48,242 bases of DNA from Candidatus Woesearchaeota archaeon (GCA_017609385.1 JAFCEA010000001.1:1-48242); one strand, 5' to 3'; counted from the stretch's first letter, positions 1,592 to 40,038 are shown. Notes: a model not told the origin generated them from the sequence alone. Made by a program: numbers and translations.

Positions 1592-1752
1592 GGGCCTGTA
1601 GCTCAGCCTGGTAGAGCATCGCCCTTGCAAGGCGGGGGCCTCGGGTTCGAACAGCTGGTTACGCTCAGCTGGCACGCAAGGGCGGGCATTGCTTAACAGC
1701 AAGCCCACCGAGCTCGCTGACGCTCGCCAGGTCGGAAGTCCCGACGGGTCCA
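1592..1752 (+). tRNA. tRNA-Ala (anticodon UGC) interrupted by a T-loop intron
   Basis: Hand-folded cloverleaf. Acceptor GGGCCTG/CGGGTCC includes the G3:U70 Ala identity pair. D arm GCTC-AGCCTGGTA-GAGC. Anticodon arm TCGCC-CTTGCAA-GGCGG (TGC). T stem TCGGG (1641-1645) / CCCGA (1740-1744) with loop TTCGAA...T split by the insert. Discriminator A; no encoded CCA. It sits in the usual 16S-23S spacer position. Confidence 0.85.
1652..1738 (+). other. Non-canonical tRNA intron in the T-loop (about position 59/60), ~87 nt and GC-rich
   Basis: Removing 1652-1738 restores a 7-nt TTCGAAT T-loop and a complete cloverleaf. The insert is ~64% G+C by hand count and has internal hairpins (GGGC-A-TTGCT-TAAC-AGCAA-GCCC; CGAGC-TCGCTGAC-GCTCG). 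The junction is ambiguous by 1 nt. Confidence 0.7.
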
Positions 1753-1864: not shown

Positions 1865-4776
1865 AATTAAACTATTAGGTGGATGACTTGGCTCAAGATG
1901 CTGATGAAGGATGTGACAAGCTACACTATGCTCTGGCGAGGCGCACGTAGCCTTTGAACCAGAGATTTCCTAATGTGACTTCACTTTAAATCCGTAAGGA
2001 TGGGGAACGCAGGATCTTAGTACCTGCAGGAAAAGAAATCAATTGAGATGCTGTTAGTAAGAGCGACTGAAAACAGCAAAAGGCAAACTGAATCCTTTTT
2101 TGAAAGAAAAAGGAGATGTGGTGTTGTAAGACCGCTTTTTATCTTCTTTCGGGAACTCAAATTTTTCTGGAAAGAAAAGCTATAGAGGGTGATAGCCCCG
2201 TAGAGGCAACTGAAAAAGATTTTAGCGTGTTCTTGAGTACTGTTTACTGGAAACTAAGCAGGAATTTAGGAGACATCAACTTCTAACCTTAAATACATTT
2301 TGAGTCCGATAGAGCACAGTACCGTGAGGGAAAGTTGAAAAGAACCCTTAACAGGGAGTTAAAAGATCCTGAAACCTAATAGTAATAGAGGGGTAGGGCT
2401 CTTAGGAGTTCTACCGTGCGTTTCGAATAACGTGCCAGGGAGTTTATCTAAGTGGCAAGGATAATTCTTTAAAGGAGTATCCTAAGGGAAACCAACAGGC
2501 TCGCAGCTTGCAAGGAGCGAGGTATTAACATGCCTGAAGTCACTTGGATATGACCCGAAGCCGGGCGATCTAACCCTAGGTAAGGTGAAGTGAGGATAAA
2601 ACCTCGTGGAGGCCTGAAGAGGTTCTACGTGCAAGTGTTCTTCTAACCTGGGGCTAGGGGTGAAAAGCCAATCGAGCCCGGTGATAGCTGGTTCCTACTG
2701 AAGTTGGCCGTAGTCAAGTTTCAGATAAGACAACTAGAATGGTAGAGCTACGGATTGGGAATTTAGGCCTCGAAAGGGGTCGGTTCGCTGTCCAACTCCA
2801 AATGTTTTGGTGTCATAGATTCTGGAAAACGGCGGCTCGTCGTAAGGGTGAGTCACGAGAGGGGAACAACCCAGACTATAGTTAAGGTCCTAAAGTATCA
2901 ACTAAGTGTTAAAGGGTGAAGAATGTCCATAGCCTAAGACAGCGAGGAGGTTGGCTTAGAAGCAGCCATCCTTTAAAAAGTGTGTAACAACTTACTTGTC
3001 AAGGTTATGGGTCTCGAAGATTGACAGGGCTAAGTTGATCACCGATACTATAGACAACCGAAAGGTTAGTGGTAGGTAGGCATTCTGATAGGGAAGAAGC
3101 ATTTCTGTAAAGAAATGTTGACCTGTTAGGAAAGAAAATCCTGGTAAAAGTAAGATCATAGCAGAGTGAGAATCTCTGCCATCGAAGGGGCAAGGGTTCC
3201 TTGACAATATAGTTTAGTCAAGGGTTAGTTGATCCTAACCAAGCCCATAAATTGGGCAAGGGGAAAGGGAAAACGGTTAATATTCCGTTACTATTCAAAT
3301 ATTCGGCAACGAAAGTTTGATTACTGACACTTTGGGTTAGGCTAATACAAATCGTCGTTTGTATCAACTGGAATAAATCAATGGAGTATTACAATGATGA
3401 GAAGTTGATTAAATCCAGGATGAGTGGTTCTTATGAATCATTTAGCTTATACCTTGAGTCCGTGAAAAAGGAATCAAAACAGATTTTGAATAACCATACC
3501 CAGAACCAGCACAGGTGCCCCTAGGTGAGAAACCTAAGATGTGAAGGAGTAATCTAATTGAGGGAATTCGGCAAATTGGCCCTGTACCTTTGGTATAAGG
3601 GGTCCCTGCAATTGTGTTTGCATAAATGCGATTGCAGGGCGCAGTAACAAAGGCGGTTCGACTGTTTAACAAAAACTTAACTGACTGCTAGCCTGTAAAG
3701 GTGTGTATAGTCAGTGACGTCTGCCCAGTGTCAGTACCTAAAACCTCTTTTCAAGGAGGCTAAGGGCTGGTAAACGGCGGGGGTAACTATAACTCTCTTA
3801 AGGTAGCTTAATGCCTTGCCGATTGAATGTCGGCTTGCATGAATGGCGTAACGAAATCGCCACTGTCCCCAATTAGAATCCTCTGAACATTCTTTCCTGG
3901 TGCAAAAGCCAGGGATCTCCAGTGGGAAGTAAAGACCCCGTGAAACTTTACTGTAGCCTGTAGCTGTGATGTGAGTTTTGATGTGCAGTGTAGGTGGAAG
4001 TTGCTAAAGCTTGAACGCTAGTTTAAGTGTAGACGACAATGAGACACCACCCTTTAGAATTTACGTCACTAACTGAGAAATCAGGACAATTATAGGTGGA
4101 CAGTTTGGCTGGGATGGCACTCTACTGAAATGATATCAGTAGAGCCCAATGGTTGGCTCAAACGGGTCAGAAACATTTTGCGAAGATACAACAGCGCAAA
4201 AGCTGAGCATCCGTTGTAGAGTGTAAGAGTAAAAGCCAGCCTGACTGGATTTCAACTAATAAGAAATCCAGAGAAGAAATTTTGGTCTAGCGAACCCCTA
4301 TGCCTCCTTGATGGGGGCTAGGGATGACAGAAAAGTTACTCCGGGGATAACAGAGTTGTAGCGCCCGAGAGTTCATATCGACGGCGCTGCTTGCTACATC
4401 GATGTCGGCTCTTCCTATCCCGGCCGTGCAGAAGCGGCCAAGGGTGGGGGTGTTCACCCATTAAAAGGGATCGTGAGCTGGGTTCAGAACGCTGTGAGGC
4501 AGTTTGTTTAATATCTACTGGAGATGTAGGATATCTGAAGGGAAGGATCCCCTAGTACGAGAGGAACGGGGGTTCGGGGCCTCTGGTCCACCGGTTATCT
4601 GACAAGGTAAGCCGGGCAGCTACGCCCTAAGGGATAAGTGCTGAAAGCATCTAAGCACGAAGCCCGCCCTGAAAAGAGATATCTTAGGACTCGGGCAAAA
4701 GACCCGTTTAATGGGACCGGTGTGTAAGTGCCAAGCTTCGGCGAGGCATTCAGCACGCGGTTCCCAATAGTCCATA
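1865..4776 (+). rRNA. rrl: 23S (LSU) rRNA
   Basis: 5' GGTGGATGACTTGGCTCAAGATGCTGATGAAGG (~1879 onward). Peptidyl-transferase region GGGGATAACAG ~4343. Sarcin-ricin loop AGTACGAGAGGAAC 4554-4567. Helix 1 pairs ACTATTAGG (1871-1879) with CCCAATAGT (4763-4771). Length ~2.9 kb, so no large insertion. Mature ends are approximate. Confidence 0.93.
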
Positions 4777-4795
4777 GTACTTTGCCTATGCATGG
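4777..4795 (+). other. 3' strand of the 23S rRNA processing stem
   Basis: GTACTTTGCCTATGCATGG is the perfect 19-nt complement of 1846-1864. Confidence 0.8.
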
Positions 4796-4982
4796 TTTTC
4801 ATTTATTTTATTTCTATGAAATATTAAATTCAAAAGATAATGAAAACTTACTTAGCGTTAGCCTTGAAGTTATGCAAAAAAATTTGTTGTATTGTTCATG
4901 ATTTTAATATTCATCTTTGATTATTTGCCAAATGTTTATTCAAAACAAAAACATTTTAAAGATATGATATTTCTTTTTGGAT

Positions 4983-7363: not shown

Positions 7364-8626
7364 ATGGTTCATGTTGCTGAATACAAGAAAAAGATTGTAA
7401 ATGAATTTGTTAATTTAATTAATTCTTACCCTGTTATTGGTGTTGTAGATATGGAAAACCTTCCAACTGCTCAGCTGCAAAAAATGAGGGAGCAGCTCAG
7501 AGACAAAGTTGTTATAAGAATGACTAAAAGAAGGTTGATGAACATAGCCTTTGATAAACTAAAAGATAGTAAGAAAGGCATTGAAGAAATGAAGAATTAT
7601 TTAACAGGCATGCCCACACTTTTGTTCACAAAAGATGACCCATTCAAGCTTGCAAAAACCTTAAAGAAAAGCATGTCAACAGCTCCTGCAAAGCCCGGCC
7701 AGGTTGCACCAAAAGACATTATAGTTAGTGCTGGACCAACACCATTCAGTCCTGGACCAGTTATAAGCGAGCTTGCATCTGTAGGCATAAAAACAGCTAT
7801 TGAAAGTGGCAAGATTGTTGTTAAGAGCGATGCTATTGTTGTAAAAAAAGGGGACAAGGTAAGCCAAGCTATTGCAGGAATCCTTGCAAGATTGGGTGTT
7901 GAGCCAATGGATGTTGGCCTTAATTTAACAGCTGTTTATGATAATGGAACAATATTTACAAGGGATGTCCTTGATATTGATGAAGAGGAATTTATTGGTA
8001 AGATAAAAACAGCATATAACTCTGCTCTTGGACTTGCTCTTGAAATCTCCTTCCTGACTAAAGAAACTATTGAGATGATGATAGCAAAGGCTTTCAGAGA
8101 GACAAAAACCATTGCTTTATCACAAAACATAATGGCTGATGACGTAAAGGAAGAGATTGTGGCAAAGGCAACCAAAGAAATGCTTGCCCTGAAATCAAAA
8201 TTAAATATTCATGATATACCCAAAGAGAAACCTAAAGAAGAAGAGAAAGAAGTTAAAGAAGAAAAAGAAGAGATTAAAAAAGAAACTGGAGAAAAACCAG
8301 CTGAAGAGAAAGAAGAAATCAAGGAACCAGAAGAAAAACCTAAAGAAGAGAAAAGTGAGGATAAGAAAGAGGAAGTTAAGGAAGAAGTCAAAAAAGAAGA
8401 ACAAAAGATAGAAATTAAAGCAGAGGATATTAAAGAAAAAACTAAAGCTGAAAAGCCTAAGGAAGAAGTTAAGAAAGAAGAACAACCAAAAGCAAAAACT
8501 GAAGTTAAGGAAAAACCAGAACAAGACGTTGAGACAAAAAAAGTAGAAACAAATGAAGAAACTAAGAAAGAGGAAAAACCCAAAGAAGAAGTTAAAACAG
8601 AGGAAAATCAAGATAAACAAAATTAA
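7364..8626 (+). CDS. rplP0: 50S ribosomal stalk protein P0 (uL10) with a ~135-aa Lys/Glu-rich C-terminal extension
   Basis: The N-terminal ~280 aa align with archaeal P0 (YKKKIVNEF..., TAQLQKMREQLRD, PGPVISELASVGI). The tail from ~8215 is a low-complexity KE/P repeat that ends ...EENQDKQN. Confidence 0.9.
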   Translation: MVHVAEYKKKIVNEFVNLINSYPVIGVVDMENLPTAQLQKMREQLRDKVVIRMTKRRLMNIAFDKLKDSKKGIEEMKNYLTGMPTLLFTKDDPFKLAKTLKKSMSTAPAKPGQVAPKDIIVSAGPTPFSPGPVISELASVGIKTAIESGKIVVKSDAIVVKKGDKVSQAIAGILARLGVEPMDVGLNLTAVYDNGTIFTRDVLDIDEEEFIGKIKTAYNSALGLALEISFLTKETIEMMIAKAFRETKTIALSQNIMADDVKEEIVAKATKEMLALKSKLNIHDIPKEKPKEEEKEVKEEKEEIKKETGEKPAEEKEEIKEPEEKPKEEKSEDKKEEVKEEVKKEEQKIEIKAEDIKEKTKAEKPKEEVKKEEQPKAKTEVKEKPEQDVETKKVETNEETKKEEKPKEEVKTEENQDKQN

Positions 8627-8650
8627 ATATAAAGTTTGGAGGTAAATAAA

Positions 8651-8959
8651 ATGGAGTATGTATATGCTGCAATGTTGATCCACAAAGCTGGAGGAAAAAT
8701 AGATGAAGCAACAGTAACAAAAGTATTAGAAGCTGCTGGAGCAAAACCAGATTCAGCAAGAGTCAAGGCCGTGGTGGCAGCCTTTGATGGAGTTGACATT
8801 GAGAAAGTAATCAAAGAATCATCTGTTATGCAGGTAGCAGCACCAGCTGCTGGTGAAGCAAAAGCAGAAGAGAAAAAGGAAGAAAAACCCAAAGCCAAAG
8901 AAGAAGAGAAGAAAAGCCAGGAACAGGCAGCTGCTGGTCTAGGTTCGTTGTTTGGTTGA
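8651..8959 (+). CDS. rpl12: 50S ribosomal stalk protein P1 (L12)
   Basis: MEYVYAAMLIHKAGG N-terminus and the canonical acidic tail ending GLGSLFG. GGAGGT at 8638-8643 supports the ATG at 8651 rather than the TTG at 8636. Confidence 0.93.
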   Translation: MEYVYAAMLIHKAGGKIDEATVTKVLEAAGAKPDSARVKAVVAAFDGVDIEKVIKESSVMQVAAPAAGEAKAEEKKEEKPKAKEEEKKSQEQAAAGLGSLFG

Positions 8960-23055: not shown

Positions 23056-23778
23056 TTAGTTTTCTTTAAGGAAATCTTCCCATATTTTTATTGCTTCTTT
23101 TTCTGTTTCCTCAACTGTTTTTGGAAAGTTTGTATCTAGATAAACAATCCTGGAACCATGGCTCTCGAACAGGTTTTTTAACCACTGGCTGTTGTACCTT
23201 TGCTCAACCTTTCTCTGAAAGTTTATCTCTTCAAAAATAGCCTTATCATGTTTTTGTCTCTGGCTTAGTCTTTGCATAACTGTTTCTGGTGCAACCTGTG
23301 CTATTATCAACAGGTTTGGAGAATTCTGCAATGCAAGCTTATTGCCTGGCAGTCTCATAATCTCTGTTAAGGGTATATTACCCTGAACAGGCTGGTAGAC
23401 AATAGAGCTTATAACACCCCTTTCCTGAAAAATATATTTATTTTGTTTTAAGGCAGGAATAATAACCATTTTGTAAAGTATTTCCCTATCAATGGAAAAT
23501 GCGTGTGCTGTAGAGGTTATTGAATAGTTGCGGTTGTTTTTTCTTACTATTTCTTCTCTTAAAGCACGCCCAACCCAGCAATAGCTCATCTCACAGGAAA
23601 CAATTACATCAAAGTCATTTATCTCTTCAGGCTCTGGAAACCTGTTTTTTTCCTTGCAATATGTCCTTAGATCAAATATCTTAAGCTGTTTTTGCTCAGC
23701 CCATTTTTTCAGGGCATTAACAATAACTCCCTTACCAGAACCGTCAAGGCCGTCAACCATCACAAACCTTTTCTTCAT
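23056..23778 (-). CDS. Thymidylate-kinase-family P-loop (deoxy)nucleotide kinase
   Basis: P-loop DGLDGSGKG and a Tmk-like layout, adjacent to dut/nrdDG. Substrate is not determinable. Confidence 0.65.
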   Translation of the reverse strand: MKKRFVMVDGLDGSGKGVIVNALKKWAEQKQLKIFDLRTYCKEKNRFPEPEEINDFDVIVSCEMSYCWVGRALREEIVRKNNRNYSITSTAHAFSIDREILYKMVIIPALKQNKYIFQERGVISSIVYQPVQGNIPLTEIMRLPGNKLALQNSPNLLIIAQVAPETVMQRLSQRQKHDKAIFEEINFQRKVEQRYNSQWLKNLFESHGSRIVYLDTNFPKTVEETEKEAIKIWEDFLKEN

Positions 23779-23837: not shown

Positions 23838-24437
23838 TTATCTAGAAGCATCTGCCTGTCTTTCAAGATCAAGTTTCTTTTTAATTGCATTTGATGAATT
23901 ACTTAACTGGTAGGCAGCTATTATCTCATCAGCAAGTGCATTAACAGCTTCTTTCTTGGAGTTGAAGGATTTTGTAAAAGCACCCTGAACCATATATCTC
24001 AATGCAAGATCAACCCTTCTTTGAGGAGCACACTCAACAGCCTTTGGATAACGTGCTCCACCATATTCTATTGTTATTATTTCTTCCCTTGGTGCTGCAT
24101 TCTCCAGTGCCTTGACAAAAACAGCGATTGGATTCTGTTTTGTCCTGTTTTCAATGATTTTAAATGTTTCCTCAACAAGAGAATATGCTGATTGGCTCTT
24201 CCCTGTTGATTTGTATGAAGTTATAAAGTGCTTTTTTCCTTTGTGTCCTGGTATCATTATTTTGTTTATTAATCTCTCAACAATAAATGTCTTTGATTTG
24301 TGGAACCTTGCACCAGCATATCTTGCACCTGTCTTTGGTATTATCTTTGGCTCTAGATTAATGTATCTCTTTAACCCAGGATCCTCTACTTTTATTCCAT
24401 TTATACTCCATCTGTTAAATACCTTTATATCTTCCAT
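23838..24437 (-). CDS. rps7: 30S ribosomal protein S7 (uS7)
   Basis: The full-length archaeal S7 pattern (RFHKSK..., IVERLINKIM, YGGARYPKAV, ALRYMVQGA). Confidence 0.92.
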   Translation of the reverse strand: MEDIKVFNRWSINGIKVEDPGLKRYINLEPKIIPKTGARYAGARFHKSKTFIVERLINKIMIPGHKGKKHFITSYKSTGKSQSAYSLVEETFKIIENRTKQNPIAVFVKALENAAPREEIITIEYGGARYPKAVECAPQRRVDLALRYMVQGAFTKSFNSKKEAVNALADEIIAAYQLSNSSNAIKKKLDLERQADASR

Positions 24438-24518
24438 TTTAATGCTTATTTCATAGAGGGGGGTTTGAGTTCATATTTAAAGCTTTCTGTGGTGATACAA
24501 AAAATAAAGTTAAAAAAG

Positions 24519-24619
24519 AATAAAAATTCTTATGAACATACTTTTGTCATGTAGCTTGATTCGGGATTTGTATTAATTATGTGCTCATTAGAATAATAGA
24601 CTTTATTAAGAACAGTCAT
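24519..24619. repeat. Direct repeat copy A (101 bp): an orphan copy of the 3' end of gene 27444-28118
   Basis: Base-for-base identical to 27433-27533 by direct comparison. On the minus strand it encodes MTVLNKVYYSNEHIINTNPESSYMTKVCS-stop. Confidence 0.95.
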
Positions 24620-24641
24620 TATAAATGCATTCTGTCTTACC

Positions 24642-25235
24642 TTAAAGGATATATTCTAATGTTTTGCTGGTTACAGCTATTTTATCCTGATGAGAATCAA
24701 TTCTGTAGATTCTACGCTCCAAAGAAACTGCATCAATGGCTACTCTAAAGTTATTTAAATAGCACTCAAATTCAGGGGTTATACCTAAAAGCCGTTTCTT
24801 GATTAATTCCATGCCAGCAAAATAGATTATATGAAAATCCTCTATAGGAACATAATGAATATCTTGGCAGAGTGTATCAACAATTTTTTTGGATTCCTCA
24901 AATGTTCTAGTTCTTATAAGGCGAGCGATTGCTGATGACTTTATTGTAACATATCCCCTATCCAAAAGAACAATATCACTCTCTATATTTTGACACAAAT
25001 CATTCCTTCTTTTTGCACCGACAATATTAATTTTAACAATCTCTCTTGGATCCTTTGAAACATACCAGCCCTTTCTTTCTTCAAGAGATTGCGGATAATC
25101 TGAATTAAAATACACTACAGAGTCAGGGATAAAAACTCCTAATCCTTTCTTTGAGAAATGATCATTCAGCAGTTTTACCTGTGTGCTTTTCCCAACACCA
25201 TCTATGCCACCAATCTCAATTATTGTTTTTTTCAT
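24642..25235 (-). CDS. Thymidylate-kinase-family P-loop kinase (island gene 4)
   Basis: GGIDGVGKST P-loop and the LLDRGY (DR[YH]-like) motif. 197 aa. Its start overlaps the NUDIX stop (ATGA). Confidence 0.7.
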   Translation of the reverse strand: MKKTIIEIGGIDGVGKSTQVKLLNDHFSKKGLGVFIPDSVVYFNSDYPQSLEERKGWYVSKDPREIVKINIVGAKRRNDLCQNIESDIVLLDRGYVTIKSSAIARLIRTRTFEESKKIVDTLCQDIHYVPIEDFHIIYFAGMELIKKRLLGITPEFECYLNNFRVAIDAVSLERRIYRIDSHQDKIAVTSKTLEYIL

Positions 25236-25651
25236 TTCAAAAGCTCTGCATTTATCTTCTTAAATAGATCTTTTAAAGTCCTGAATGGAAGACGCCTTAA
25301 TACAGTTCCATAATCATAAAATCCAAATTCAGAATGTTCAGATCCTATATGAATCTCATCTTCAGACAGCTTAACATAAAACACTGCAAGTTCATGTCTA
25401 ATAAGCTCATCATCTTTCTTTGATTCAAAGGAATAGGTATATTTTGATTTTATAGCTGAAGTTATTGATAATGACGCCTCCTCCTTGACCTCGCGGAACA
25501 GAGCTTGTTCATCAGTCTCATCGGCTTCTTTACCGCCTTTCAGAAACTCATATCCAACCCAGCCTTCTTTTCTCTTGAACAAGGCATATAATATTTTCTT
25601 GTTTTCTTTTTTATATAATATTGCTAAAATTCCTTTTTTTATTTTGACCAT
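25232..25651 (-). CDS. NUDIX hydrolase (island gene 3)
   Basis: The Nudix box reads GGKEADETDEQALFREVKEEASL, i.e. G-x5-E-x7-REVxEE. Confidence 0.85.
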   Translation of the reverse strand: MVKIKKGILAILYKKENKKILYALFKRKEGWVGYEFLKGGKEADETDEQALFREVKEEASLSITSAIKSKYTYSFESKKDDELIRHELAVFYVKLSEDEIHIGSEHSEFGFYDYGTVLRRLPFRTLKDLFKKINAELLK

Positions 25652-25654
25652 TTT

Positions 25655-26269
25655 TCATTTATTAATAACCTTAACTATCAAAGATATAGCACTTTTGATA
25701 TTTTTATTCTCAATTACAGGAATAGTATATTTTCTTGCACAATCCACTAAAAAATCATTGAGTTCCCTAATTGCCTTAAAATTATCAAAGTAAAATTTTG
25801 GCTGCTGATAAGACTTTTTAAGCCTGTTGAGAATATTCCTTTTATGCTCTTTACTATTTACAGATAAGCAAACTGTTTGCACATTATTCTTTTTTATTAG
25901 TTTTTCTATTAAGTTTGGATGGAGATGTACTCCTTCCATGATAATGTTCCTTCCCCAAGAATCATTAATGTTTATTACACCAGAAATCTCTTTCTCAATC
26001 TGCTCCGAATATTTCTCGTATCCCAAAAGAATATTCTTTTGGCTCTGTTTTTTTCCAAATAGCTCCCAGGATTTAAAAGAATATGTGTTAATATACTGGT
26101 TCTTGGGTTCTTGGACTGCCTTTATTCCTCTTATTATATCCGTATCTATTACCTGCTCAATTCCAAGTTCTATAGCTAGTTTATAAGATATTGTAGATTT
26201 ACCTGAGACAGGTGCACCCATAATTAAAATTATTTTATTTCTTGACTTTTGGAATTGGCTTAAATTCAT
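25655..26269 (-). CDS. P-loop kinase resembling the 2-phosphoglycerate-kinase (COG2074) family (island gene 2)
   Basis: IMGAPVSGKSTISYKLAIELGI..VIDTDIIR...IIMEGVHLHP follows the 2PGK-like ATPase pattern. Confidence 0.65.
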   Translation of the reverse strand: MNLSQFQKSRNKIILIMGAPVSGKSTISYKLAIELGIEQVIDTDIIRGIKAVQEPKNQYINTYSFKSWELFGKKQSQKNILLGYEKYSEQIEKEISGVININDSWGRNIIMEGVHLHPNLIEKLIKKNNVQTVCLSVNSKEHKRNILNRLKKSYQQPKFYFDNFKAIRELNDFLVDCARKYTIPVIENKNIKSAISLIVKVINK

Positions 26270-27038
26270 TTTGGTTTACCTTAACTAATCCTCTTGAATA
26301 ATCCTTACAAAAATAGCAAAAATCCATTATAAACTGCAAATCAGCTGATTTTTCTTCTTTGGAGCTTTGCAATTCTTTCTTTGATTTGTTGGAGATTGTA
26401 AGCAACCTATATCCAAGTTGTGCATCTATATTTTTTGAAAATGAATTTATAATATCCTCTTTCTGCGATGTATATATGCCTTTCAGTAAAAGGGTTGTTT
26501 TTGCGATGACAAAAGATATGTTTATACATTTATGATATGAAGACAATGATTTGTAGAGCTCTGTAATCAATTCAGATATATTAGAGTAAAGCTCAAAGGG
26601 GTGGTATTGAGCAGTATACCCTTCCAAATCTGCTTTTAAATCCTTACCATAAATTCTTTGAGAATTAAGAATATCATAAAGGAAAGATGTTCTTTTCTTT
26701 CCATGTGTATGCGCCTTGAATATTTTAATATCCTCCTTGAGATCATTTATCTCAGAATAACACGTTGAAATCTTTATTCCACTCTTTTTACTGATCCGGC
26801 TTATATTTTCCTCTAATGTATGTATATCTTCAAAAGAGGGTTTCTCAACAATCAAGGATAAATCTATATCACTGTATCTAAAATCAAAGTTTTTGGTATA
26901 ATAACTGCCAGCACTATATACTGAATAAAGCGAAGGGCAATTAGTAAATGCCTGATAAAGTATTTGTCTTAATTCTTTTGATTTATTCATAGCTTTTTTT
27001 AAAACAAATTTCTCGTTAGGTTCTACATCTATGTTCAT
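26235..27038 (-). CDS. Pol-beta-superfamily nucleotidyltransferase with a helical C-terminal domain (island gene 1)
   Basis: YSAGSYYTKNFDFRYSDIDLSLIV gives the G-S ... D-x-D minimal NTase signature. The C-terminal ~150 aa are helical. It overlaps the next gene by 35 nt. Confidence 0.7.
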   Translation of the reverse strand: MNIDVEPNEKFVLKKAMNKSKELRQILYQAFTNCPSLYSVYSAGSYYTKNFDFRYSDIDLSLIVEKPSFEDIHTLEENISRISKKSGIKISTCYSEINDLKEDIKIFKAHTHGKKRTSFLYDILNSQRIYGKDLKADLEGYTAQYHPFELYSNISELITELYKSLSSYHKCINISFVIAKTTLLLKGIYTSQKEDIINSFSKNIDAQLGYRLLTISNKSKKELQSSKEEKSADLQFIMDFCYFCKDYSRGLVKVNQNEFKPIPKVKK

Positions 27039-27432
27039 TATTATTTTTCCTCTCTTTTTGCTCAGACTTTTAAATTATATAGCCAATGGTGTTTTATCCT
27101 TTAAATCAATATAAATTATATTATTATTCCTTTGTTTTTGAGATTGTCAATAACACAACAACTATTTCTGTTTAACCTGTCTTCTTCTACAATAAAGTTA
27201 CCCCTTTCATTTCAAACTTTCAATTATATAGGTTATTTTGCATATCTAACCTATTTAAATATTTTGGTTATAAATCCCCAAGATTTTCAACAGTGCTGGA
27301 AATAATAGTATTTCATATAAAGTTTTCATGTGTCTTGTTCTTTGGGTAGCCTGCTTCTTTTTTTCTTTTATTTTAAAAGTAGTGGATTATCATTCTAAGA
27401 TGCTAGATTATATAAAATCAAGGAAAAGAAGA

Positions 27433-27533
27433 AATAAAAATTCTTATGAACATACTTTTGTCATGTAGCTTGATTCGGGATTTGTATTAATTATGTGCTC
27501 ATTAGAATAATAGACTTTATTAAGAACAGTCAT
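27433..27533. repeat. Direct repeat copy B (101 bp): the genuine 3' end (29 codons, stop and 11 nt) of gene 27444-28118
   Basis: Identical to 24519-24619. Confidence 0.95.
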
Positions 27534-28118
27534 ATTAAATCTTAGTCTGAACAGATAAACTTTGTTTTTCTCAAGATTAAAGTCAGCGTCAGTAGTGCAT
27601 TCATCACAGATTTCAAAGTATTTATATCTCTCAAACAGGCCATCCATCTTATAAACTTCCTTGTATTCCTGGTTAACATCCTCTTTAACCTCAAATGCAA
27701 TGTCTTTTGGAAGAACCCCTGTCTTAAAATAAACAAAGCCTCCATTTTTCCCTTTTATGCATGCTGGCTTTACTGTCACATTAACTATTGATGTGCCTTC
27801 CTCATTAGTCAGGATTGGCTCAAAATATGTATTTAATTCTATTTCAGGGATAGTTTCACACTCATTAGAATTATCAACCACCCTCTTATCAGGGCATACA
27901 TATTTTGTTAAAGTTATTGTTTCTGTCTCTGTTTTTGTTTTCTCAGGGCATAATGAGCAGTCCATGACACAATCAGGGCATTTTTCACATATGCATTCAG
28001 GGCATTCAGGGCATTCTGCTGGTTTCTGAAATATAAAAGCAAACACAAGAACAATTACTATAACTACAAACGATGTAATGTATGGCATATCCTCTTTTTT
28101 AAAGATTCCTTTTTTCAT
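27444..28118 (-). CDS. Membrane-anchored Cys-rich extracellular protein (hypothetical)
   Basis: N-terminal TM helix, then ECPECPECICEKCPDCVMDCSLCPE. It carries the motif KYVCPDKRVVDNSNEC, shared with gene 30298-31011. Confidence 0.65.
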   Translation of the reverse strand: MKKGIFKKEDMPYITSFVVIVIVLVFAFIFQKPAECPECPECICEKCPDCVMDCSLCPEKTKTETETITLTKYVCPDKRVVDNSNECETIPEIELNTYFEPILTNEEGTSIVNVTVKPACIKGKNGGFVYFKTGVLPKDIAFEVKEDVNQEYKEVYKMDGLFERYKYFEICDECTTDADFNLEKNKVYLFRLRFNMTVLNKVYYSNEHIINTNPESSYMTKVCS

Positions 28119-28753: not shown

Positions 28754-30208
28754 TCAACCATCAATTGTATATTTTCTGTAAATTTGTTTTTCAACAGGCT
28801 TAACAGGTTTTTCTTCTTCTGGTTCAATAACATTAACAATCCATGCATAGGTTTTTGTTTCAATTCCGTCTGAAACTATGACCTGGACTGGCTTTGTTCC
28901 AAGTATTGTAAATCTTCTCCTGTGTATATTATTTCCACTATATTTCTCAAAAACACCAAACTTCCATGTATATGTAAGGTCATTGTTATCTAAATCATCA
29001 GCAATAACCTTAAAATCAATAATCTTGTTTTTATAGACATTTATCAGTGCTTCAGGGCTAGTGTTTGTTATTATTGGAGCCCTGTTTTTATCATATACCC
29101 TTATAGTCATGTTTCTTTTAGCCATTATCTTGTTGTCACTGGCAATAAAAGTTAGTGTAAAATCCTTTTTGTCTTTATCAACAGTATCAAAATCAGGTAT
29201 CCAACTAAATGTCTCATTAACTAAGCTAGAGCCATTTGGTGCATTCTCAACCAAGAAGTTTATACTATCACCATCAGGATCTGTTGCATAAATCTTGAAT
29301 TCTATTGATTTGTTCTCGTAAACAGCAATATCACTGATTGGCTTAAGAATTGGTGCCCTGTTTGTGTTTTTTATTATTAAGGTTATGTTTTCTGAATCAT
29401 TAAGATAACCATCTGATGCCAAAACAGTTGTAGAGTATGTTCCTGCCTCATCATATCCAATTTCGCGTTTTTTCTTGTTTGCAAAGCCAGAATAATAATA
29501 TCTCAAAATATCTCCATCAGGGTCTGCTGCAACTGGCTCAAGAGTCAGTAATTCACCCTCATTTACTGTTATTGTTCCTATTTTTTCCAGTATCGGAGCC
29601 CTGTTTGTCTCATAAACAGTTATCTTAATTGTTTGTTCTGCTTCAAGATCATTTGATTTTGCAACAAAAGTTACAAAAAAGTTTCTTTTTGGCCTGTAAG
29701 GAACATGTATTCTCGCAATTATTTTTTCAAGCCAGTTCTTTTTTACTGTATCAAAGCTAGGTGTCCATCTAAACTCATTATTAACAAAACTAGCATCATC
29801 TGGCAAATTAATTGCTAAATAAGTTATTTTATCACCATCAGGATCAATAGCTGTAATATTCAAGATTAATTGCTCATTTTCATTAACAAAAGCATTATTT
29901 AATGGCTCAAAAAAAGGGGCCCTGTCCTTGTCTTCAACTACTAACAAAACCTCTTGAGTGTCTGTTAATTTGCCGTCAGATGCTGTTACAGTAATCTTAT
30001 ATTCTCCAGCATCATCACAGCCAGTCTGCCACTCGCCATTTTGATCTAAGGGTTGGCTGAAACTATAAATAATATTGTCCATATCCTCATCTATTGCCTC
30101 TGGCTTAAGGCTTACAAGATCTCCCTCATTAACTGTTATTGTCATAAATTCTGCTCTAACTAAAATAAGCTGGAATAAAATTATAAAAATTAGTATTAAT
30201 TTTTTCAT
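28754..30208 (-). CDS. Secreted protein with ~5 tandem cadherin-like/Ig-like repeats
   Basis: Signal peptide MKKLILIFIILFQLILVRAEF. Repeated modules end in NRAP(I/F) and contain DPDGD Ca-binding-like motifs. Two module types alternate. Confidence 0.8.
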   Translation of the reverse strand: MKKLILIFIILFQLILVRAEFMTITVNEGDLVSLKPEAIDEDMDNIIYSFSQPLDQNGEWQTGCDDAGEYKITVTASDGKLTDTQEVLLVVEDKDRAPFFEPLNNAFVNENEQLILNITAIDPDGDKITYLAINLPDDASFVNNEFRWTPSFDTVKKNWLEKIIARIHVPYRPKRNFFVTFVAKSNDLEAEQTIKITVYETNRAPILEKIGTITVNEGELLTLEPVAADPDGDILRYYYSGFANKKKREIGYDEAGTYSTTVLASDGYLNDSENITLIIKNTNRAPILKPISDIAVYENKSIEFKIYATDPDGDSINFLVENAPNGSSLVNETFSWIPDFDTVDKDKKDFTLTFIASDNKIMAKRNMTIRVYDKNRAPIITNTSPEALINVYKNKIIDFKVIADDLDNNDLTYTWKFGVFEKYSGNNIHRRRFTILGTKPVQVIVSDGIETKTYAWIVNVIEPEEEKPVKPVEKQIYRKYTIDG

Positions 30209-30297
30209 TTTATTAATTAAAATATTTAATTATATAAAAAGCTTTCTATTATTTAGTATTCTAAAGGAGTAAAAAGAAATATAAAAAAATAAAAGAA

Positions 30298-31011
30298 TCA
30301 GTCTTGTACAATCTTTACAATTCTTGGAGGTCTGTTCACATTATTGACTGTTACTATTACATCCTGGCTTGTTGATTCTATGTTATCAGAGGCTGTTACC
30401 GTAACAATATGTGTTCCTGCATCATCATAGTTTGTTGTATAGCTTGCCTCTGTCATCCAGCCAGAGTATGTTATTGTTACTTCATCTCCGTCAGGATCTG
30501 TTGCAACTGGCTCAAAGCTTACTGTCTCACCCTCATTAAGTGTGATGTCGGCAATTGGACTTAGTACTGGTGGTTTATTTATGCTCTCAACAACCAACAA
30601 AATCTTTTGTGTATCTGTTAATTCACCATCAGATGCTGTTACAGTTATCTCATAGTTTCCTGCATCTCCCTTCTTTGTCTGCCATCTACCCTCATTGTCT
30701 AATGGCTCACTAAATGTATACAAAATAGTGTCTGCATCAGGATCCTCGCTTTCAGGCTTTAGAACAACTAATTCCCCTTCTTGAACCATTATTTTGGTTA
30801 ACTCTTCTTCTGGTTCTTCTTCAACCTCTTCTACAACTTCTTCTAGTATTTCAGTTATTAGTTCTTCTTCTTTTTCCTCTACCCCAAGACATTCATCCAA
30901 ATTGGTAACAATAGAACCATCTGGGCATACATACTTTGTTTCTGTAAGCTTGCATCCGCTTGCCAAAAGCAATAAAAGAACTAACCCACAAAAAAATATC
31001 TCTTTTTTCAT
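30298..31011 (-). CDS. Putative lipoprotein with an acidic linker and two cadherin-like repeats (paralog of 28754-30208)
   Basis: Signal peptide ends LLLASGC (lipobox-like). TKYVCPDGSIVTNLDEC motif, E-rich linker. The first repeat is visibly similar (many identical positions by eye) to the first repeat of the neighbouring gene. Confidence 0.8.
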   Translation of the reverse strand: MKKEIFFCGLVLLLLLASGCKLTETKYVCPDGSIVTNLDECLGVEEKEEELITEILEEVVEEVEEEPEEELTKIMVQEGELVVLKPESEDPDADTILYTFSEPLDNEGRWQTKKGDAGNYEITVTASDGELTDTQKILLVVESINKPPVLSPIADITLNEGETVSFEPVATDPDGDEVTITYSGWMTEASYTTNYDDAGTHIVTVTASDNIESTSQDVIVTVNNVNRPPRIVKIVQD

Positions 31012-38259: not shown

Positions 38260-40038
38260 TCAATGTCTCTTTTTCTTTTCATAGATTAAGAAACCTATTA
38301 ATGCAAGAAGTGCTATTATCAAGACTATTATCATTGCTGTCTTTGGCTTTGCAGGAGGTATCTCTTCCTCTTCTGGTAGCACTTCTTCCTCTGGTGGTTC
38401 TTCTGGAACTTCCTCAGGCTCCTCTTCTGGAACTTCCTCTGGTTCTTCTTCTTCTTCAGCTTCAGCAGTAGTAGATTCATGGATGTGTTTTAGTGTCAGA
38501 TATGCCTTGCTGTTCTTTATCTCATCCAGTTTGATATACAAGTCATAGTAGCCGTCATTATCAAAGTCAAAACTCTTAGACTCAAGAAGCTTTAGTGTTA
38601 GTGTAACAGGCGTTGATGTAACCCTTAATATAGCATAATCAGTTCCTATTTCCACACCTTTTATTGTATGATAGGCTTTATCCAAAATAAAGGTTTTAAT
38701 ATAGCCTTTTCTCAGTATGATACTAGTTCCCTGTTCTGTAATTGAAGTAGAACTTACTGTACCTCCACCCCCACTAGTAGCAGCAGTAACTGCTGCTGTT
38801 CTTGTAACAATTAGTGAGATGGTAGCACTACTATGGCTAACATTATCATAAGCTATAACACTAAAGTAATTTTCGCTTGTTATAGGTAAATCAACTGTTA
38901 TGGTATATACTCCTGTTGCTGCAGTTAGTGTTGCATTAACCCCATTAACAGCTACATGAGATATGCCTGATCCATTATCAATTGCAGTTCCTGAGATGAT
39001 TGTAGTCGTTGCAGTAGTTGATGTTCCTTCAGAACTTGAAGCAGTAACTGTTGGTGCAACTGCATCACATTTTAGAACAAATTCAGATGAATTCTTTTTA
39101 TTGCCAGAATCATCTGTTACTTCTAATATTAAAAGGTATGTTGCATTATCCAATAATCCTGTTAAGGTTACATGAGTGCCTGCTTCTGTAACATTATCTG
39201 CAACTGTTGATACATTAATAGTATTATTTACATAAACAGCAATATCCAATGTATCATCTATTACATCAGAGCCATTGATTGCAATGGTGTCTGCTATCCA
39301 TGTATTATTTGCAGGGCTTGTTATATTAGAAAGGGTTGGTGCAGCATTATCTACTTTAAGGGTTATGATTTCTGTACTATTAATATTACCAGCAAAATCT
39401 GTTGCAGTAATCAGGAAAATGCAATTCCCGTCTGCTCCGCAAGAAAAGTTTGCAGTAGCATTTTCAGTATACCAAACTTCTGTAGAAGCAATCTGACTTA
39501 AGCTTGTTCCGTTTATTGTAACAGTGCTTACATTAGCAGTTGGGTCACTAACAGTAACACTAAAGTTTAATGATGTAGTGTTGGTTACATTATAATCAGA
39601 ATCATTAACTGCAAAATTAGTTACAAGTGGATTTGTATTATCAAAAGTTACACTAGTAATAGCAGTGGCATTAATCTCTGCACCGGTACTATTAATTGCA
39701 GTAGCATTAATATCATAAGTGCCATCAGAAATACTAGTAGTATTAAATGTGCAGTTAAATGCAGTTCCTGTTGTATCATTAACACATATTGAGTAACAAC
39801 TTGTGGCATTGCAGTAGTAGAATGTCACATTGTCTGCATTTCCTGTGGTTGCTGCACTAAATGTATAGTTTCCACTGATGTTTTCATTATTTGATGGATG
39901 ATTTATTGTCACATCAGTCAACTCATCAGCAGCAAGGGCAATCCAGACGCCCACTGCAACCAGAATAACCATCAGAGAAAGAAAAAGTGTTTTGTTTTTC
40001 ATAAATGCGGCTTTCTTAAAAAAATTGTCTTTTATCAT
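38260..40038 (-). CDS. Cell-surface (S-layer-like) glycoprotein candidate with Ig-like repeats, an acidic Pro/Glu linker and a C-terminal TM anchor
   Basis: Signal/TM segment at the N-terminus and roughly thirty N-x-S/T sequons by hand count. EEEEEPEEVPEEEPEEVPEEPPEEE linker, then a hydrophobic helix ending KKKRH. GAGGTG precedes the ATG. Confidence 0.75.
   Translation of the reverse strand: MIKDNFFKKAAFMKNKTLFLSLMVILVAVGVWIALAADELTDVTINHPSNNENISGNYTFSAATTGNADNVTFYYCNATSCYSICVNDTTGTAFNCTFNTTSISDGTYDINATAINSTGAEINATAITSVTFDNTNPLVTNFAVNDSDYNVTNTTSLNFSVTVSDPTANVSTVTINGTSLSQIASTEVWYTENATANFSCGADGNCIFLITATDFAGNINSTEIITLKVDNAAPTLSNITSPANNTWIADTIAINGSDVIDDTLDIAVYVNNTINVSTVADNVTEAGTHVTLTGLLDNATYLLILEVTDDSGNKKNSSEFVLKCDAVAPTVTASSSEGTSTTATTTIISGTAIDNGSGISHVAVNGVNATLTAATGVYTITVDLPITSENYFSVIAYDNVSHSSATISLIVTRTAAVTAATSGGGGTVSSTSITEQGTSIILRKGYIKTFILDKAYHTIKGVEIGTDYAILRVTSTPVTLTLKLLESKSFDFDNDGYYDLYIKLDEIKNSKAYLTLKHIHESTTAEAEEEEEPEEVPEEEPEEVPEEPPEEEVLPEEEEIPPAKPKTAMIIVLIIALLALIGFLIYEKKKRH

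Follow-up and report, generated by a model that had tools for sequence, protein, structure and literature searches.

Ap4A hydrolases cut nucleotide-pp(n)-nucleotide bonds, and enzymes of the NUDT2 type are reported to be active on 5'-triphosphate RNA as well. The 2-phosphoglycerate kinase (2PGK) family has, to our knowledge, very few known functions. In the NadR/NadM route of NAD salvage, in which NMNAT::kinase and NMNAT::Nudix fusions occur, a kinase acts before an adenylyltransferase and a Nudix enzyme controls the product (PMC9503650). Here we analysed a 48,242-nt stretch of DNA from a Candidatus Woesearchaeota archaeon (the window; coordinates count from its first letter) that encodes, side by side, a nucleotidyltransferase (NTase), a P-loop kinase (K1), a Nudix hydrolase (Nudix) and a second P-loop kinase (K2) (Table 1). 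The quartet is a genuine, conserved four-gene operon. NMNAT (HIGH-motif) models have no match in this cassette, the NTase of which is of the Pol-beta type. The combination had been suspected to correspond to no named pathway or defence system; searches of PADLOC, NCBIfam, PHROGs (which gave no informative family match for the cassette) and the literature (on the gene combination, on DPANN archaea with Nudix and kinase, and on 2PGK functions) yielded neither a match nor a description of the cluster. The original prediction of an uncharacterised, non-housekeeping, nucleotide-centred accessory operon thus survives on the three grounds on which it was open to refutation: conservation, the lack of a named pathway and the motif-based family calls.

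Table 1 Features of the cassette and its surroundings in the window
Feature	Position	Strand	Length	Remarks
Genuine Tmk	23056-23778			Beside nrdG, nrdD and dut
Direct repeat, distal copy	24500-24626	None		Between the K2 stop and the rpS7 start
Repeat core, distal copy	24519-24619		101 nt	Identical to the proximal core
K2	24642-25235	Minus	197 aa	From the ORF list
Nudix	25232-25651	Minus	139 aa	From the ORF list
K1	25655-26269	Minus	204 aa	From the ORF list
NTase	26235-27038	Minus	267 aa	From the ORF list
Non-coding leader	27039-27413	Minus	~375 nt	Without a convincing ORF
Direct repeat, proximal copy	27414-27540	None		Last ~90 nt and stop codon of the 224-aa ORF, then ~11 nt downstream
Repeat core, proximal copy	27433-27533		101 nt	Identical to the distal core
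224-aa ORF	27444-28118	Minus	224 aa	3' end lies in the proximal repeat copy

Organization and conservation of the operon

The ORF list and the junction sequences agree on the predicted packing: NTase and K1 overlap by 35 nt, a gap of 3 nt separates K1 from Nudix, and Nudix and K2 share a 4-nt ATGA overlap. Every motif quoted in the original prediction is present in the translations (GS...SDIDL in NTase; GAPVSGKST, IDTDIIR and EGVHL in K1; G-x5-E-x7-REVKEE in Nudix; GGIDGVGKST and LLDRG in K2), and profile and structure searches upheld the corresponding family calls at the superfamily level. The promoter presumably sits in the non-coding leader, which is partially conserved in locus L009 and not conserved in L010, in which homology begins inside NTase.

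At least seven lineages, in which the flanks are unrelated, share the order NTase-K1-Nudix-K2 at pairwise identities of 32-62%, and in every one of them the NTase and K1 coding sequences overlap by 17-35 nt. K1 and Nudix are fused into a single protein of 332 amino acids in L002 and L003, two independent samples of one lineage, and dN/dS values of 0.20-0.30 for each of the four genes indicate purifying selection. A chance juxtaposition of unrelated small genes, which the original prediction had named as a way to be wrong and for which the weak single-protein Pfam scores of the window NTase and K2 are the one point in favour, is refuted by the retained order, the fusion, the coding overlaps and the purifying selection, and we give it next to no credence.

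Remote relatives of NTase (25-31% identity) again adjoin K1-like kinases; at these loci a PHP phosphoesterase replaces Nudix and a DUF362 protein is added (DUF362 and the LarA 2-hydroxy-acid racemases belong to the same Pfam clan). Because even distant NTase relatives pair with K1-like kinases, we regard NTase and K1 as the core of the cassette. A 290-amino-acid protein beside a remote K1 relative (L016), tried as a further member of the NTase family, gave no significant hhalign result despite its GS...DVD motif.

The nucleotidyltransferase

NTase joins a Pol-beta-superfamily nucleotidyltransferase domain to a helical C-terminal domain, an AadA/ANT-like architecture; its homologues begin near M17. 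G44-S45 and D57-I-D59, which make up the G[SG]...DxD pattern of Pol-beta enzymes, are invariant in 13 family members (the middle position of D57-x-D59 aside), as is a loop that reads H110-x-H112-G-K-K-R. Candidates for the third catalytic carboxylate, which Pol-beta enzymes carry on the third strand, are E96, which is frequent and variable, and D103, which is nearly invariant but falls in a predicted helix. Polbeta/NTP_transf_2 models (PF18765/PF01909) match 11 of the 13 members, with a best value of 1e-10, and the window protein itself is sub-threshold. The whole family amounts to 29 matches among 1.84 billion representative proteins.

Against PDB sequences, the single NTase protein had no match and the family profile found only MNT-level matches (E ~0.04, with ANT(4') at E 1.9). 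With the AF2 model (pLDDT 80.6), Foldseek recovered AadA/ANT(3'')(9)/AAD(9) from the PDB over the full length (E 3e-6, probability 1.00, 262-268 aligned columns); the TM-score to AadA is only 0.32, because the relative orientation of the domains differs. MNT and HEPN folds match the two halves of the protein, the C-domain resembling HEPN fold AF_0298. The nearest structures are small-molecule O-adenylyltransferases (AadA, AAD(9), LinB and ANT(4')), not RNA- or DNA-polymerising NTases; matches to CCA-adding enzymes, poly(A) polymerases and TUTases all have E > 0.1. The viral BFVD library returned only weak, generic NTase matches. An MNT-HEPN toxin-antitoxin pair was considered for NTase and rejected: the HEPN Rx4-6H motif is absent from the invariant residues of the C-domain, and the partners are kinases and Nudix.

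All of these best structural matches, ANT(3'')(9) included, are resistance enzymes, and one family member weakly matches the Pfam streptomycin adenylyltransferase model. The cassette could accordingly be read as a mobile determinant for the inactivation of a xenobiotic or antibiotic, in which NTase, together with one or two O-phosphotransferases, modifies a single toxic small molecule (for example an aminoglycoside-like compound or a nucleoside antibiotic) and Nudix deals with a toxin or by-product of the nucleotide type. By sequence, however, NTase belongs to no ANT family, AadA included, as no Pfam or NCBIfam ANT model scores above threshold. A translationally coupled set of four enzymes with a kinase::Nudix fusion is also atypical of resistance determinants, and the cassette has no conserved transporter or regulator beside it. 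We consider this reading very unlikely.

Pol-beta NTases with helical C-domains also include CD-NTases and OAS, and Foldseek gave weak matches to CdnE/CdnC (E 0.02-0.2, low probability). Together with the presence of a mobile, rare cassette on element-like contigs and a weak PADLOC candidate for Nudix (PDC-S07, E 6.5e-10), this would be in line with nucleotide-signal defence or anti-defence, in which NTase makes, or Nudix destroys, an immune nucleotide that the kinases feed or drain. The AadA-like fold nevertheless ranks far above the CD-NTases, PADLOC has no match for NTase and only P-loop-level matches for the kinases, and the cassette comes with neither a sensor nor an effector (nuclease, TIR, SIR2, transmembrane or pore-forming). 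Its surroundings in the window are ordinary housekeeping genes (an rRNA operon, dnaK/dnaJ/grpE, nrdDG and rpS7) with no defence-island context. Such a function is therefore improbable, and of the roles first suggested for the locus, that of a classical defence system has the least support. A CBASS-like system was likewise rejected: no lineage has an effector, and the CD-NTase models of PADLOC do not match.

The kinases and the Nudix hydrolase

K1 has an NMP-kinase fold and the core of the 2PGK/mevalonate-3-phosphate 5-kinase family, with no ATP-cone. It matches the NCBIfam models for 2-phosphoglycerate kinase (NF003259; E 3e-39, 135.1 bits against a cut-off of 343, positions 87-289 of 306) and, over its full length, mevalonate-3-phosphate 5-kinase (NF008996; E 2.6e-18, 66.5 bits against a cut-off of 250). 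The label '2PGK-like' consequently stands as a superfamily resemblance and falls as a family assignment. The best Foldseek matches of the AF2 model (pLDDT 90.2) are adenylate, UMP/CMP, shikimate and gluconate kinases, a generic NMP-kinase fold that does not discriminate among them. Going by NCBIfam names, the family includes characterised kinases of small phospho-hydroxy-acids; known substrates are not transferable to K1 or K2, because both score far below the curated family cut-offs. Searched singly against PDB sequences, the two kinases gave only P-loop-level matches.

K2 is a divergent thymidylate-kinase-like P-loop kinase with an acceptor-binding middle region of its own. GGIDGVGKST and LLDRG(Y/F) correspond to the Tmk-type P-loop and DR[YH] motifs, and D12, D92 and R93 are invariant in ten members, eight of which match Thymidylate_kin (PF02223); K2 itself is sub-threshold (E 6e-4, 19.9 bits against 27). 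The family profile matches solved Tmk structures at E 1e-9, with only the P-loop and lid segments aligned, and just the N-terminal ~70 residues of K2 align with the genuine Tmk encoded nearby. That neighbour reaches 92.5 bits with TIGR00041 (cut-off 83.25) and K2 reaches 19.1 bits, so that 'Tmk-like' holds for the superfamily and not for the family, and K2 is, as proposed, not the housekeeping copy.

The Tmk-like K2 and the NMP-kinase fold of K1 lend themselves to a second reading, in which the cassette would supply or sanitize (d)NTP pools in the style of large viruses: K2 and K1 would convert (d)NMPs to (d)NDP/(d)NTP, Nudix would remove unwanted or non-canonical (d)NTPs, NTase would be auxiliary, and the module as a whole would boost or bias DNA precursors for the cell or a mobile element. 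Nudix also matches NudB, NudG and MutT, the cassette lies 0.9 kb from tmk-nrdG-nrdD-dut in the window, and several other loci have DNA-metabolism neighbours. In the L001/L021 lineage, the cassette closes a co-directional block with Ku, an ATP-dependent ligase, PCNA and more than 20 orphan ORFs; MCM is near the cassette in L002, and a DNA methyltransferase and a DHH phosphoesterase are near it in L013. In other lineages, however, the cassette does not keep its place near nrd/dut, no cassette gene was found in IMG/VR viral contigs, and the acceptor-binding region of K2 does not align with that of Tmk. Pool supply would also leave NTase without a role, although NTase and K1 form the most conserved, translationally coupled part. 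On balance we hold it to be unlikely.

Nudix scores 38.5 bits with PF00293 (cut-off 21.1) and has an intact box, G39-x5-E45-x7-R53-E54-V-K-E57-E58, in which Glu and Arg are invariant. Its family profile matches, over the full length, the Ap4A hydrolase of C. elegans (6e-14), human NUDT2 (9e-12) and CT771 (2.5e-9) in the PDB, and by sequence it appears closest to the asymmetric Ap4A hydrolases (NUDT2 type). Where the C. elegans enzyme has its Tyr, the family has the invariant F75, a Phe 14 residues past the box compared with ~16-18 for the signature Tyr. Resemblance extends to RppH, to NudB (dATP pyrophosphohydrolase), NudG and MutT-type (d)NTP/RNA pyrophosphohydrolases, and to Dcp2.

Relatives such as CT771, RppH and Dcp2 bring RNA ends into consideration. 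K1, K2 or both might phosphorylate 5' ends (5'-OH to p, p to pp), NTase might add a 3' tail or a 5'-5' cap, and Nudix might strip 5' polyphosphate or Np(n) caps, in a form of RNA-end healing or of capping and decapping. Methyltransferases adjoin the module twice: a 442-amino-acid TIM-barrel::SAM-MTase overlaps K2 in L005, and in L018 a GCD14/Trm61-like MTase lies beside it with a PHP/PHP_C phosphoesterase. All four cassette proteins are basic (pI 8.7-9.7), and the presumed parallel with Pnkp/Hen1, taken up below, points the same way. Yet high pI is commonplace in low-GC DPANN proteomes, the methyltransferases are not kept across lineages and no RNA-binding domain was detected. The structural neighbours of NTase are antibiotic ANTs and MNTs rather than RNA-type enzymes, and those of K1 are small-molecule and NMP kinases, with Pnk and Clp1 absent from its top 50 Foldseek matches. 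RNA-end chemistry thus seems an unlikely role.

Direct repeats and mobility

The cassette was thought to lie on a repeat-bounded insert, and two direct repeats of 127 nt (92% identity) do bracket all four genes. The distal copy carries a relic of the last 29 codons of the 224-aa ORF; flanking repeats that duplicate the 3' end of a target gene are a mark of integrative mobile elements. L008 and L009 carry the same repeat pair, and because both copies share substitutions within each of the three genomes, gene conversion between them is indicated. Between the repeats lie the four enzyme genes and the leader, with no integrase or transposase of their own. An empty integration site was sought through the identical rpS7 protein, and the contigs found all bear the cassette.

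A Woesearchaeota MAG has an 88%-identical copy of the cassette at a different chromosomal site, and dS is lower for the cassette than for its flanks. The cassette apparently travels as an intact block between DPANN archaea (Woesearchaeota/Nanoarchaeota) and a number of element-like contigs. We do not call these contigs viral, because scans of IMG/VR viral contigs with NTase, K1 and K2 profiles gave no relatives. So far the cassette has been found only in a few tiny DPANN archaea, rare and patchy in its distribution; this pattern, the bounding repeats, the relocation between genomes and the low dS would also fit the transfer of an antibiotic-inactivating trait.

Proposed function

We tentatively favour a route in which a kinase and then a nucleotidyltransferase make a pyrophosphate-linked nucleotide conjugate, which Nudix would cleave, with K2 adding a phosphate back to the nucleotide set free or to the product; this is possible, at less than an even chance. 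We infer the substrates, the order of the steps and the physiological role of the cassette as follows. Its core would be the AadA/ANT-like Pol-beta nucleotidyltransferase, translationally coupled to the 2PGK-family kinase. K1 would phosphorylate a small acceptor, for which a hydroxy-acid- or phospho-acid-like metabolite, a vitamin-like precursor and a nucleotide are candidates. NTase would then transfer the NMP of an NTP onto this phosphorylated acceptor to give N-pp-X or Np(n)N, as in the synthesis of NAD, CoA, CDP-choline or F420 precursors. The Ap4A-hydrolase-type Nudix would cut the pyrophosphate linkage for turnover, proofreading or control of levels. The Tmk-like K2, finally, might rephosphorylate the released (d)NMP or add the last phosphate of the product, in the manner of dephospho-CoA kinase and NAD kinase. 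The cassette is likely to serve organisms that live by scavenging as an accessory pathway that salvages or handles a nucleotide-linked metabolite.

Some observations weigh against a conjugate. The data do not favour a phosphate over a hydroxyl as the acceptor of NTase, and ANT-type enzymes yield phosphodiesters, which Nudix enzymes do not cut. The low scores of K1 and K2 with the curated models, the resemblance of Nudix to RppH, NudB and MutT-type enzymes and the activity reported for NUDT2-type enzymes on triphosphate RNA also count against it, as do the ill-defined third catalytic carboxylate of NTase and its low TM-score to AadA. A role in conflict or resistance, moreover, would also be in keeping with a cassette that is extremely rare and mobile.

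A more specific proposal, quite unlikely in our estimation, is a self-contained make-and-break cycle for a new pyrophosphate-linked nucleotide, either a dinucleoside-polyphosphate-like alarmone or an Np(n) 5' RNA cap, that the new Pol-beta family and the 2PGK-type kinase would synthesise and that the dedicated NUDT2-like hydrolase would remove; the cassette would spread horizontally among DPANN archaea and their mobile elements.

DPANN archaea have minimal genomes and rely on scavenging, and a conserved accessory enzyme set that they exchange horizontally is therefore likely to be important to their way of life. The cassette links an orphan Pol-beta nucleotidyltransferase family to 2PGK-family kinases, a new connection, and knowing the substrate would give a function to both; it might also bring to light a novel nucleotide-linked metabolite, a route of cofactor salvage or archaeal chemistry at RNA ends. 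As a repeat-bounded, relocated unit, the cassette also represents a route by which small metabolic modules move between genomes without a recombinase of their own.

Comparison with known systems

Each of the four proteins departs from its closest characterised relatives. AadA/ANT(3'')(9), AAD(9), LinB and ANT(4') share with NTase a Pol-beta domain, a helical C-domain and a similar length (E 3e-6 to 2e-4), whereas NTase has 12-17% identity to them, its own HxHGKKR loop and a place in a four-enzyme archaeal operon. K1 matches the kinase core of the COG2074 2PGK/mevalonate-3-phosphate 5-kinase family over nearly its whole length but has neither an ATP-cone nor a 3H domain, and we know of no constant NTase partner, such as K1 has, for that family. 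Nudix and the asymmetric Ap4A hydrolases (NUDT2, C. elegans and Chlamydia CT771) have W...KG and EH motifs in common, and at the signature position both carry an aromatic residue; Nudix differs in its Phe for Tyr and its operon linkage, in one case fusion, to a kinase. Solved thymidylate kinase structures are the best matches of K2, which keeps the P-loop with its Asp, the DR motif and the lid region; its nucleotide-monophosphate-binding middle region, by contrast, is unalignable.

As a set, kinase, phosphoesterase and nucleotidyltransferase, with a methyltransferase in L005 and L018, present what we take to be a parallel to bacterial Pnkp/Hen1 RNA repair. The differences from that system are an NTase outside the ligase-type lysyl-AMP enzymes, a methyltransferase that is not conserved and a lack of RNA-binding modules. 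Compared with NadR/NadM, the cassette has a second kinase, a Nudix that is Ap4A-hydrolase-like rather than ADP-ribose-pyrophosphatase-like and no NAD-specific motif that we could find, but it combines the same three chemistries, partly fused (kinase::Nudix).

The cassette and its genomic setting

The archaeal window opens with a 16S–tRNA–23S rRNA operon and carries a cassette of four minus-strand genes that encode, in order, a Pol-beta-superfamily nucleotidyltransferase (NTase), a 2-phosphoglycerate-kinase-like P-loop kinase (K1), a Nudix hydrolase and a thymidylate-kinase (Tmk)-like P-loop kinase (K2). The positions given to the four ORFs in the original prediction match the ORF list exactly; the 35-nt overlap, 3-nt gap and 4-nt ATGA overlap that it described are all present in the junction sequences, and each motif that it quoted was found in the sequence. 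The nearby gene that it set apart as Tmk-like is a bona fide Tmk, which passes the TIGR00041 cut-off (92.5 versus 83.25 bits). That side of the cassette also holds rpS7, nrdG, a thioredoxin-like gene, nrdD and dut, and on the opposite side lie an orphan Cys-rich 224-amino-acid (aa) ORF and a gene for a THUMP protein. Farther away, the gene content is that of an ordinary chromosome (Tyw1, a Na/H antiporter, dnaK/dnaJ/grpE, Hsp20 and Ig/PKD surface proteins); the cassette lies in neither a defence island nor a provirus. GC content is 43–49% across the rRNA operon and ~31–35% from roughly 5 kb on.

Several other features of the window were recorded. The 224-aa ORF, which has an N-terminal hydrophobic segment and a Cys-rich stretch (CPECPECICEKCPDC), is kept in the related contig L008 and had no match in Pfam or NCBIfam. 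The 16S–23S spacer contains an Rfam tRNA-like element (32.5 bits) of only 58 nt that was not called by ARAGORN, and an inverted repeat on either side of the 23S rRNA gene presumably forms the 23S rRNA processing stem. A 420-aa ORF ends in a long Lys/Glu-rich low-complexity coding stretch that continues into the region beyond it and consists of degenerate AAG/GAA-rich repeats (22 copies, family D1). Two further regions encode large secreted-looking proteins in which Big_9, cadherin-like and PKD domains recur; DNA repeats of families D3, D4 and D6 lie inside their genes, and these proteins are likely to be surface adhesins of an episymbiont.

Positions of the cassette and other features in the window
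Feature	Position	Strand	Remark
NTase	26235–27038	minus	ORF list
K1	25655–26269	minus	ORF list
Nudix	25232–25651	minus	ORF list
K2	24642–25235	minus	ORF list
rpS7	23838–24437		immediate neighbour of cassette
Tmk	23056–23778		
224-aa ORF	27444–28118	minus	beyond cassette leader
Direct repeat	24500–24626 and 27414–27540		127 nt, 92% identity, 101-nt identical core
tRNA-like element	1592–1649		16S–23S spacer
Inverted repeat	1845–1867 and 4774–4796		23 nt, 96% complementary
Lys/Glu-rich stretch	7364–8930		
Big_9/cadherin-like/PKD genes	28754–31011 and 38260–40038		

Repeats and mobility

The genes had been placed on a repeat-bounded insert, and a direct repeat does bracket all four together with a 375-nt leader. 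Each repeat covers roughly the final 90 nt of the 224-aa ORF, its stop codon and ~11 nt more; the distal copy, between K2 and rpS7, is thus a relic of the 3′ end of that ORF. The arrangement is the same in L008 and in a second related contig, L009 (JAFCBX010000007.1). Within one genome, both copies carry common substitutions, and these are not the same from genome to genome, a sign that gene conversion is ongoing. Synonymous divergence between the window and L009 is 0.13–0.25 for the cassette genes, well under the 0.49–0.62 of the adjacent rpS7 and Tmk genes, which suggests that the cassette was exchanged later than the flanks diverged. In contig L010, the cassette has 88% nucleotide identity to that of the window, with homology restricted to window positions 26948–24636 (essentially the coding block), unrelated flanks and no repeat. 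No integrase or transposase lies between the repeats and a search for an empty site found none; we infer that the cassette may move as a 2.9-kb circle that recombines homologously or site-specifically.

Irregularities were seen in two close relatives. L008 is 99.97% identical to the window over 2.8 kb, from the 3′ part of the NTase gene to Tmk, and 95.5% identical upstream of a 147-nt in-frame deletion in that gene (L008 position 2487; window 26520–26665), which removes roughly residues 125–173 and leaves a 218-aa product. A perfect 52-nt tandem duplication (L008 671–774) splits its THUMP gene, and contig L020 breaks within the NTase gene. The cause is either variation between strains or faulty assembly. 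L009 is labelled ‘Methanosarcinales archaeon’, yet its cassette, rpS7, Tmk and nrdG share ~91% identity with the window; the contig probably belongs to a DPANN archaeon and was mis-binned. The remaining relatives are labelled Woesearchaeota or Nanoarchaeota.

Conservation of the quartet

Among 5.8 billion proteins, the NTase accounts for no more than eight clusters at 90% identity; in a set of 1.84 billion representative proteins, 29 relatives could be detected. The cassette occurs in just 3 of 185,579 GTDB species genomes, and none of its genes was found in IMG/VR. On the contigs retrieved, the quartet keeps its gene order in several settings, at pairwise identities of 32–62%. MAGs with the cassette include PCYE01, JAHIUF01 and JAHIZZ01.

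Settings of the cassette on related contigs
Contigs	Setting
L008, L009, L020 (window lineage)	adjoins rpS7
L010 (Woesearchaeota MAG)	between GluRS and metallophosphoesterase
L011/L014 (Nanoarchaeota MAG)	between ArgRS-side genes and ZPR1/SepF
L005–L007	AsnC upstream; TIM-barrel::SAM-methyltransferase overlaps K2
L001, L021–L024	ends co-directional string of >20 mostly orphan ORFs including Ku, DNA ligase and PCNA
L002/L003	near MCM
L013	near DNA methyltransferase and DHH phosphoesterase

In all lineages, the end of the NTase gene runs 17–35 nt into K1, and K1 and Nudix are a single 332-aa protein in L002/L003, which come from two independent samples. The dN/dS values of 0.20–0.30 for all four genes (window versus L009 or L010) place them under purifying selection, which is laxer than that on rpS7 and Tmk (about 0.08). 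Chance juxtaposition of the four genes is excluded.

In the Ku–ligase–PCNA lineage, a 73-aa acidic ORF lies between K1 and Nudix (L001 9297–9518; also L021, L023 and L024). Contigs of several samples from this lineage stop inside K2 at one place, which could be a variable junction or the end of an element; L024 alone runs past it and enters a block on the opposite strand that includes an HD-domain gene.

Enzyme families

The families originally proposed stand for all four proteins at the superfamily level, but by curated thresholds none falls within a named enzyme family. The Nudix protein has a complete Nudix box and exceeds the Pfam threshold (38.5 versus 21.1 bits). A profile of six orthologues aligned from end to end with asymmetric Ap4A hydrolases (Caenorhabditis elegans 1kt9, E = 6e-14; human NUDT2, 9e-12; Chlamydia CT771, 2.5e-9), with NudB, MutT, RppH and Dcp2 scoring lower. 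The EH motif is common to Ap4A hydrolases and the cassette protein, whereas an invariant Phe stands in the latter in place of their signature Tyr.

K1 matches the kinase core of two NCBIfam models, those of 2-phosphoglycerate kinase (E = 3e-39; positions 87–289 of the model) and mevalonate-3-phosphate 5-kinase (E = 2.6e-18); both scores fall well short of curated cut-offs, and K1 lacks the ATP-cone. Its AlphaFold model (pLDDT 90) has a generic NMP-kinase fold and is closest to adenylate, UMP/CMP, shikimate and gluconate kinases, with no polynucleotide kinase near the top of the model’s structure matches.

K2 retains the Tmk-type P-loop GGIDGVGKST, including the Asp, and the LLDRG(Y/F) motif. 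Pfam Thymidylate_kin is matched by 8 of 10 family members, and the best PDB matches of the family are solved Tmk structures (E = 1e-9). Those structures do not align with K2 in its central, acceptor-binding region, however, and alignment with the real Tmk next door is limited to ~70 N-terminal residues. A module for the supply or sanitation of (d)NTP pools would suit K2, the Nudix protein and the replication-gene neighbourhoods, but would leave the core NTase without a role, and we consider it unlikely.

The G-S and D-x-D motifs of the NTase are invariant in its family, 11 of 13 members of which match Polbeta/NTP_transf_2. Its model (pLDDT 80.6) aligns from one end to the other with the streptomycin/spectinomycin adenylyltransferases AadA, ANT(3'')(9) and AAD(9) (E = 3e-6), followed by LinB and ANT(4'); CD-NTases and RNA-specific NTases were reached only at E > 0.02. 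Taken singly, the modelled halves match MNT antitoxins and a HEPN-fold protein, and the HEPN catalytic motif is absent from the C-domain. For an invariant H-x-H-G-K-K-R loop, specific to this family, no counterpart was identified. The AadA-like fold and mobility might point to inactivation of an antibiotic or xenobiotic, a reading that the coupling of four enzymes does not suit and that we regard as very improbable.

The core pair and predicted function

Distant NTase relatives (25–31% identity), with the GS, SDIDL, HxHG and KKGIN...AK motifs in common, were recovered on two metagenome contigs. On L017, the relative overlaps a K1-like kinase gene by 17 nt. On L018 (81–3919), co-directional, overlapping genes encode a GCD14/Trm61-like methyltransferase, the NTase relative, a DUF362 protein, a K1-like kinase and a PHP/PHP_C phosphoesterase, in that order; DUF362 shares a Pfam clan with LarA 2-hydroxy-acid racemases (PMC11770544). 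From these layouts, the hydrolase partner is changeable (Nudix or PHP) and the NTase–kinase pair constant: NTase and K1 are the core of the module. The PHP enzyme, the methyltransferases now and then alongside and the resemblance of the Nudix protein to RppH, NUDT2 and Dcp2 would also fit RNA-end healing or capping/decapping, but the predicted structural neighbours of NTase and K1 speak against such a role, which we doubt.

Contig L016 (217–3768) carries another kinase/NTase-like/phosphatase/kinase set: after a remote K1 relative (31% identity) come a 290-aa protein, a His_Phos_1 phosphatase and a PfkB::CYTH fusion. The 290-aa protein carries GS...DVD, a motif like that of nucleotidyltransferases, and its C-terminal region may be OB-like; its homology to the NTase family is not significant.

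From architecture and family resemblance, we tentatively propose a model that we hold to be possible rather than probable. K1 would phosphorylate a small molecule and the ANT-like NTase would then nucleotidylate the product, giving a nucleoside-diphosphate-X compound that Nudix could cleave; K2 would rephosphorylate the liberated (d)NMP or give the product its last phosphate. Phosphorylation followed by nucleotidylation is common in biosynthesis, and it fits a small-molecule-type kinase and an ANT-like NTase that are always paired and translationally coupled. NR kinase and NMNAT, PanK and PPAT, and choline kinase and LicC work in this way, as does F420 synthesis at its lactyl- or enolpyruvyl-diphospho-guanosine step. 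Such routes yield nucleoside-diphosphate-X compounds, the very class that Nudix enzymes take as substrates; last phosphates are added by, for instance, dephospho-CoA kinase and NAD kinase. Ap4A hydrolases, the nearest kin of the cassette Nudix (once fused to K1), split nucleotide–polyphosphate–nucleotide bonds. Candidate readings are salvage of a CoA-like or NAD(P)-like kind, an alarmone of the Np(n)N type and an activated hydroxy-acid.

Relation to known systems

As first suspected, the cassette matches no named pathway or defence system in PADLOC, PHROGs or NCBIfam; the gene set is undescribed in the literature searched, and the four proteins of the window go unnamed in the sources. Signalling-based defence or anti-defence, for which effector, sensor, island context and PADLOC support are all lacking, is a highly unlikely role. 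The parts are known enzyme superfamilies; new are the way in which they are combined, the NTase family, which is an orphan and obligately linked to 2PGK-type kinases, and the relocated, repeat-bounded cassette. That the cassette is real and undescribed is well supported, and its proposed function is a prediction. As a kinase/nucleotidyltransferase/Nudix accessory module, it would work in a manner akin to NadR/NadM-type or ANT-type systems without being a member of either.
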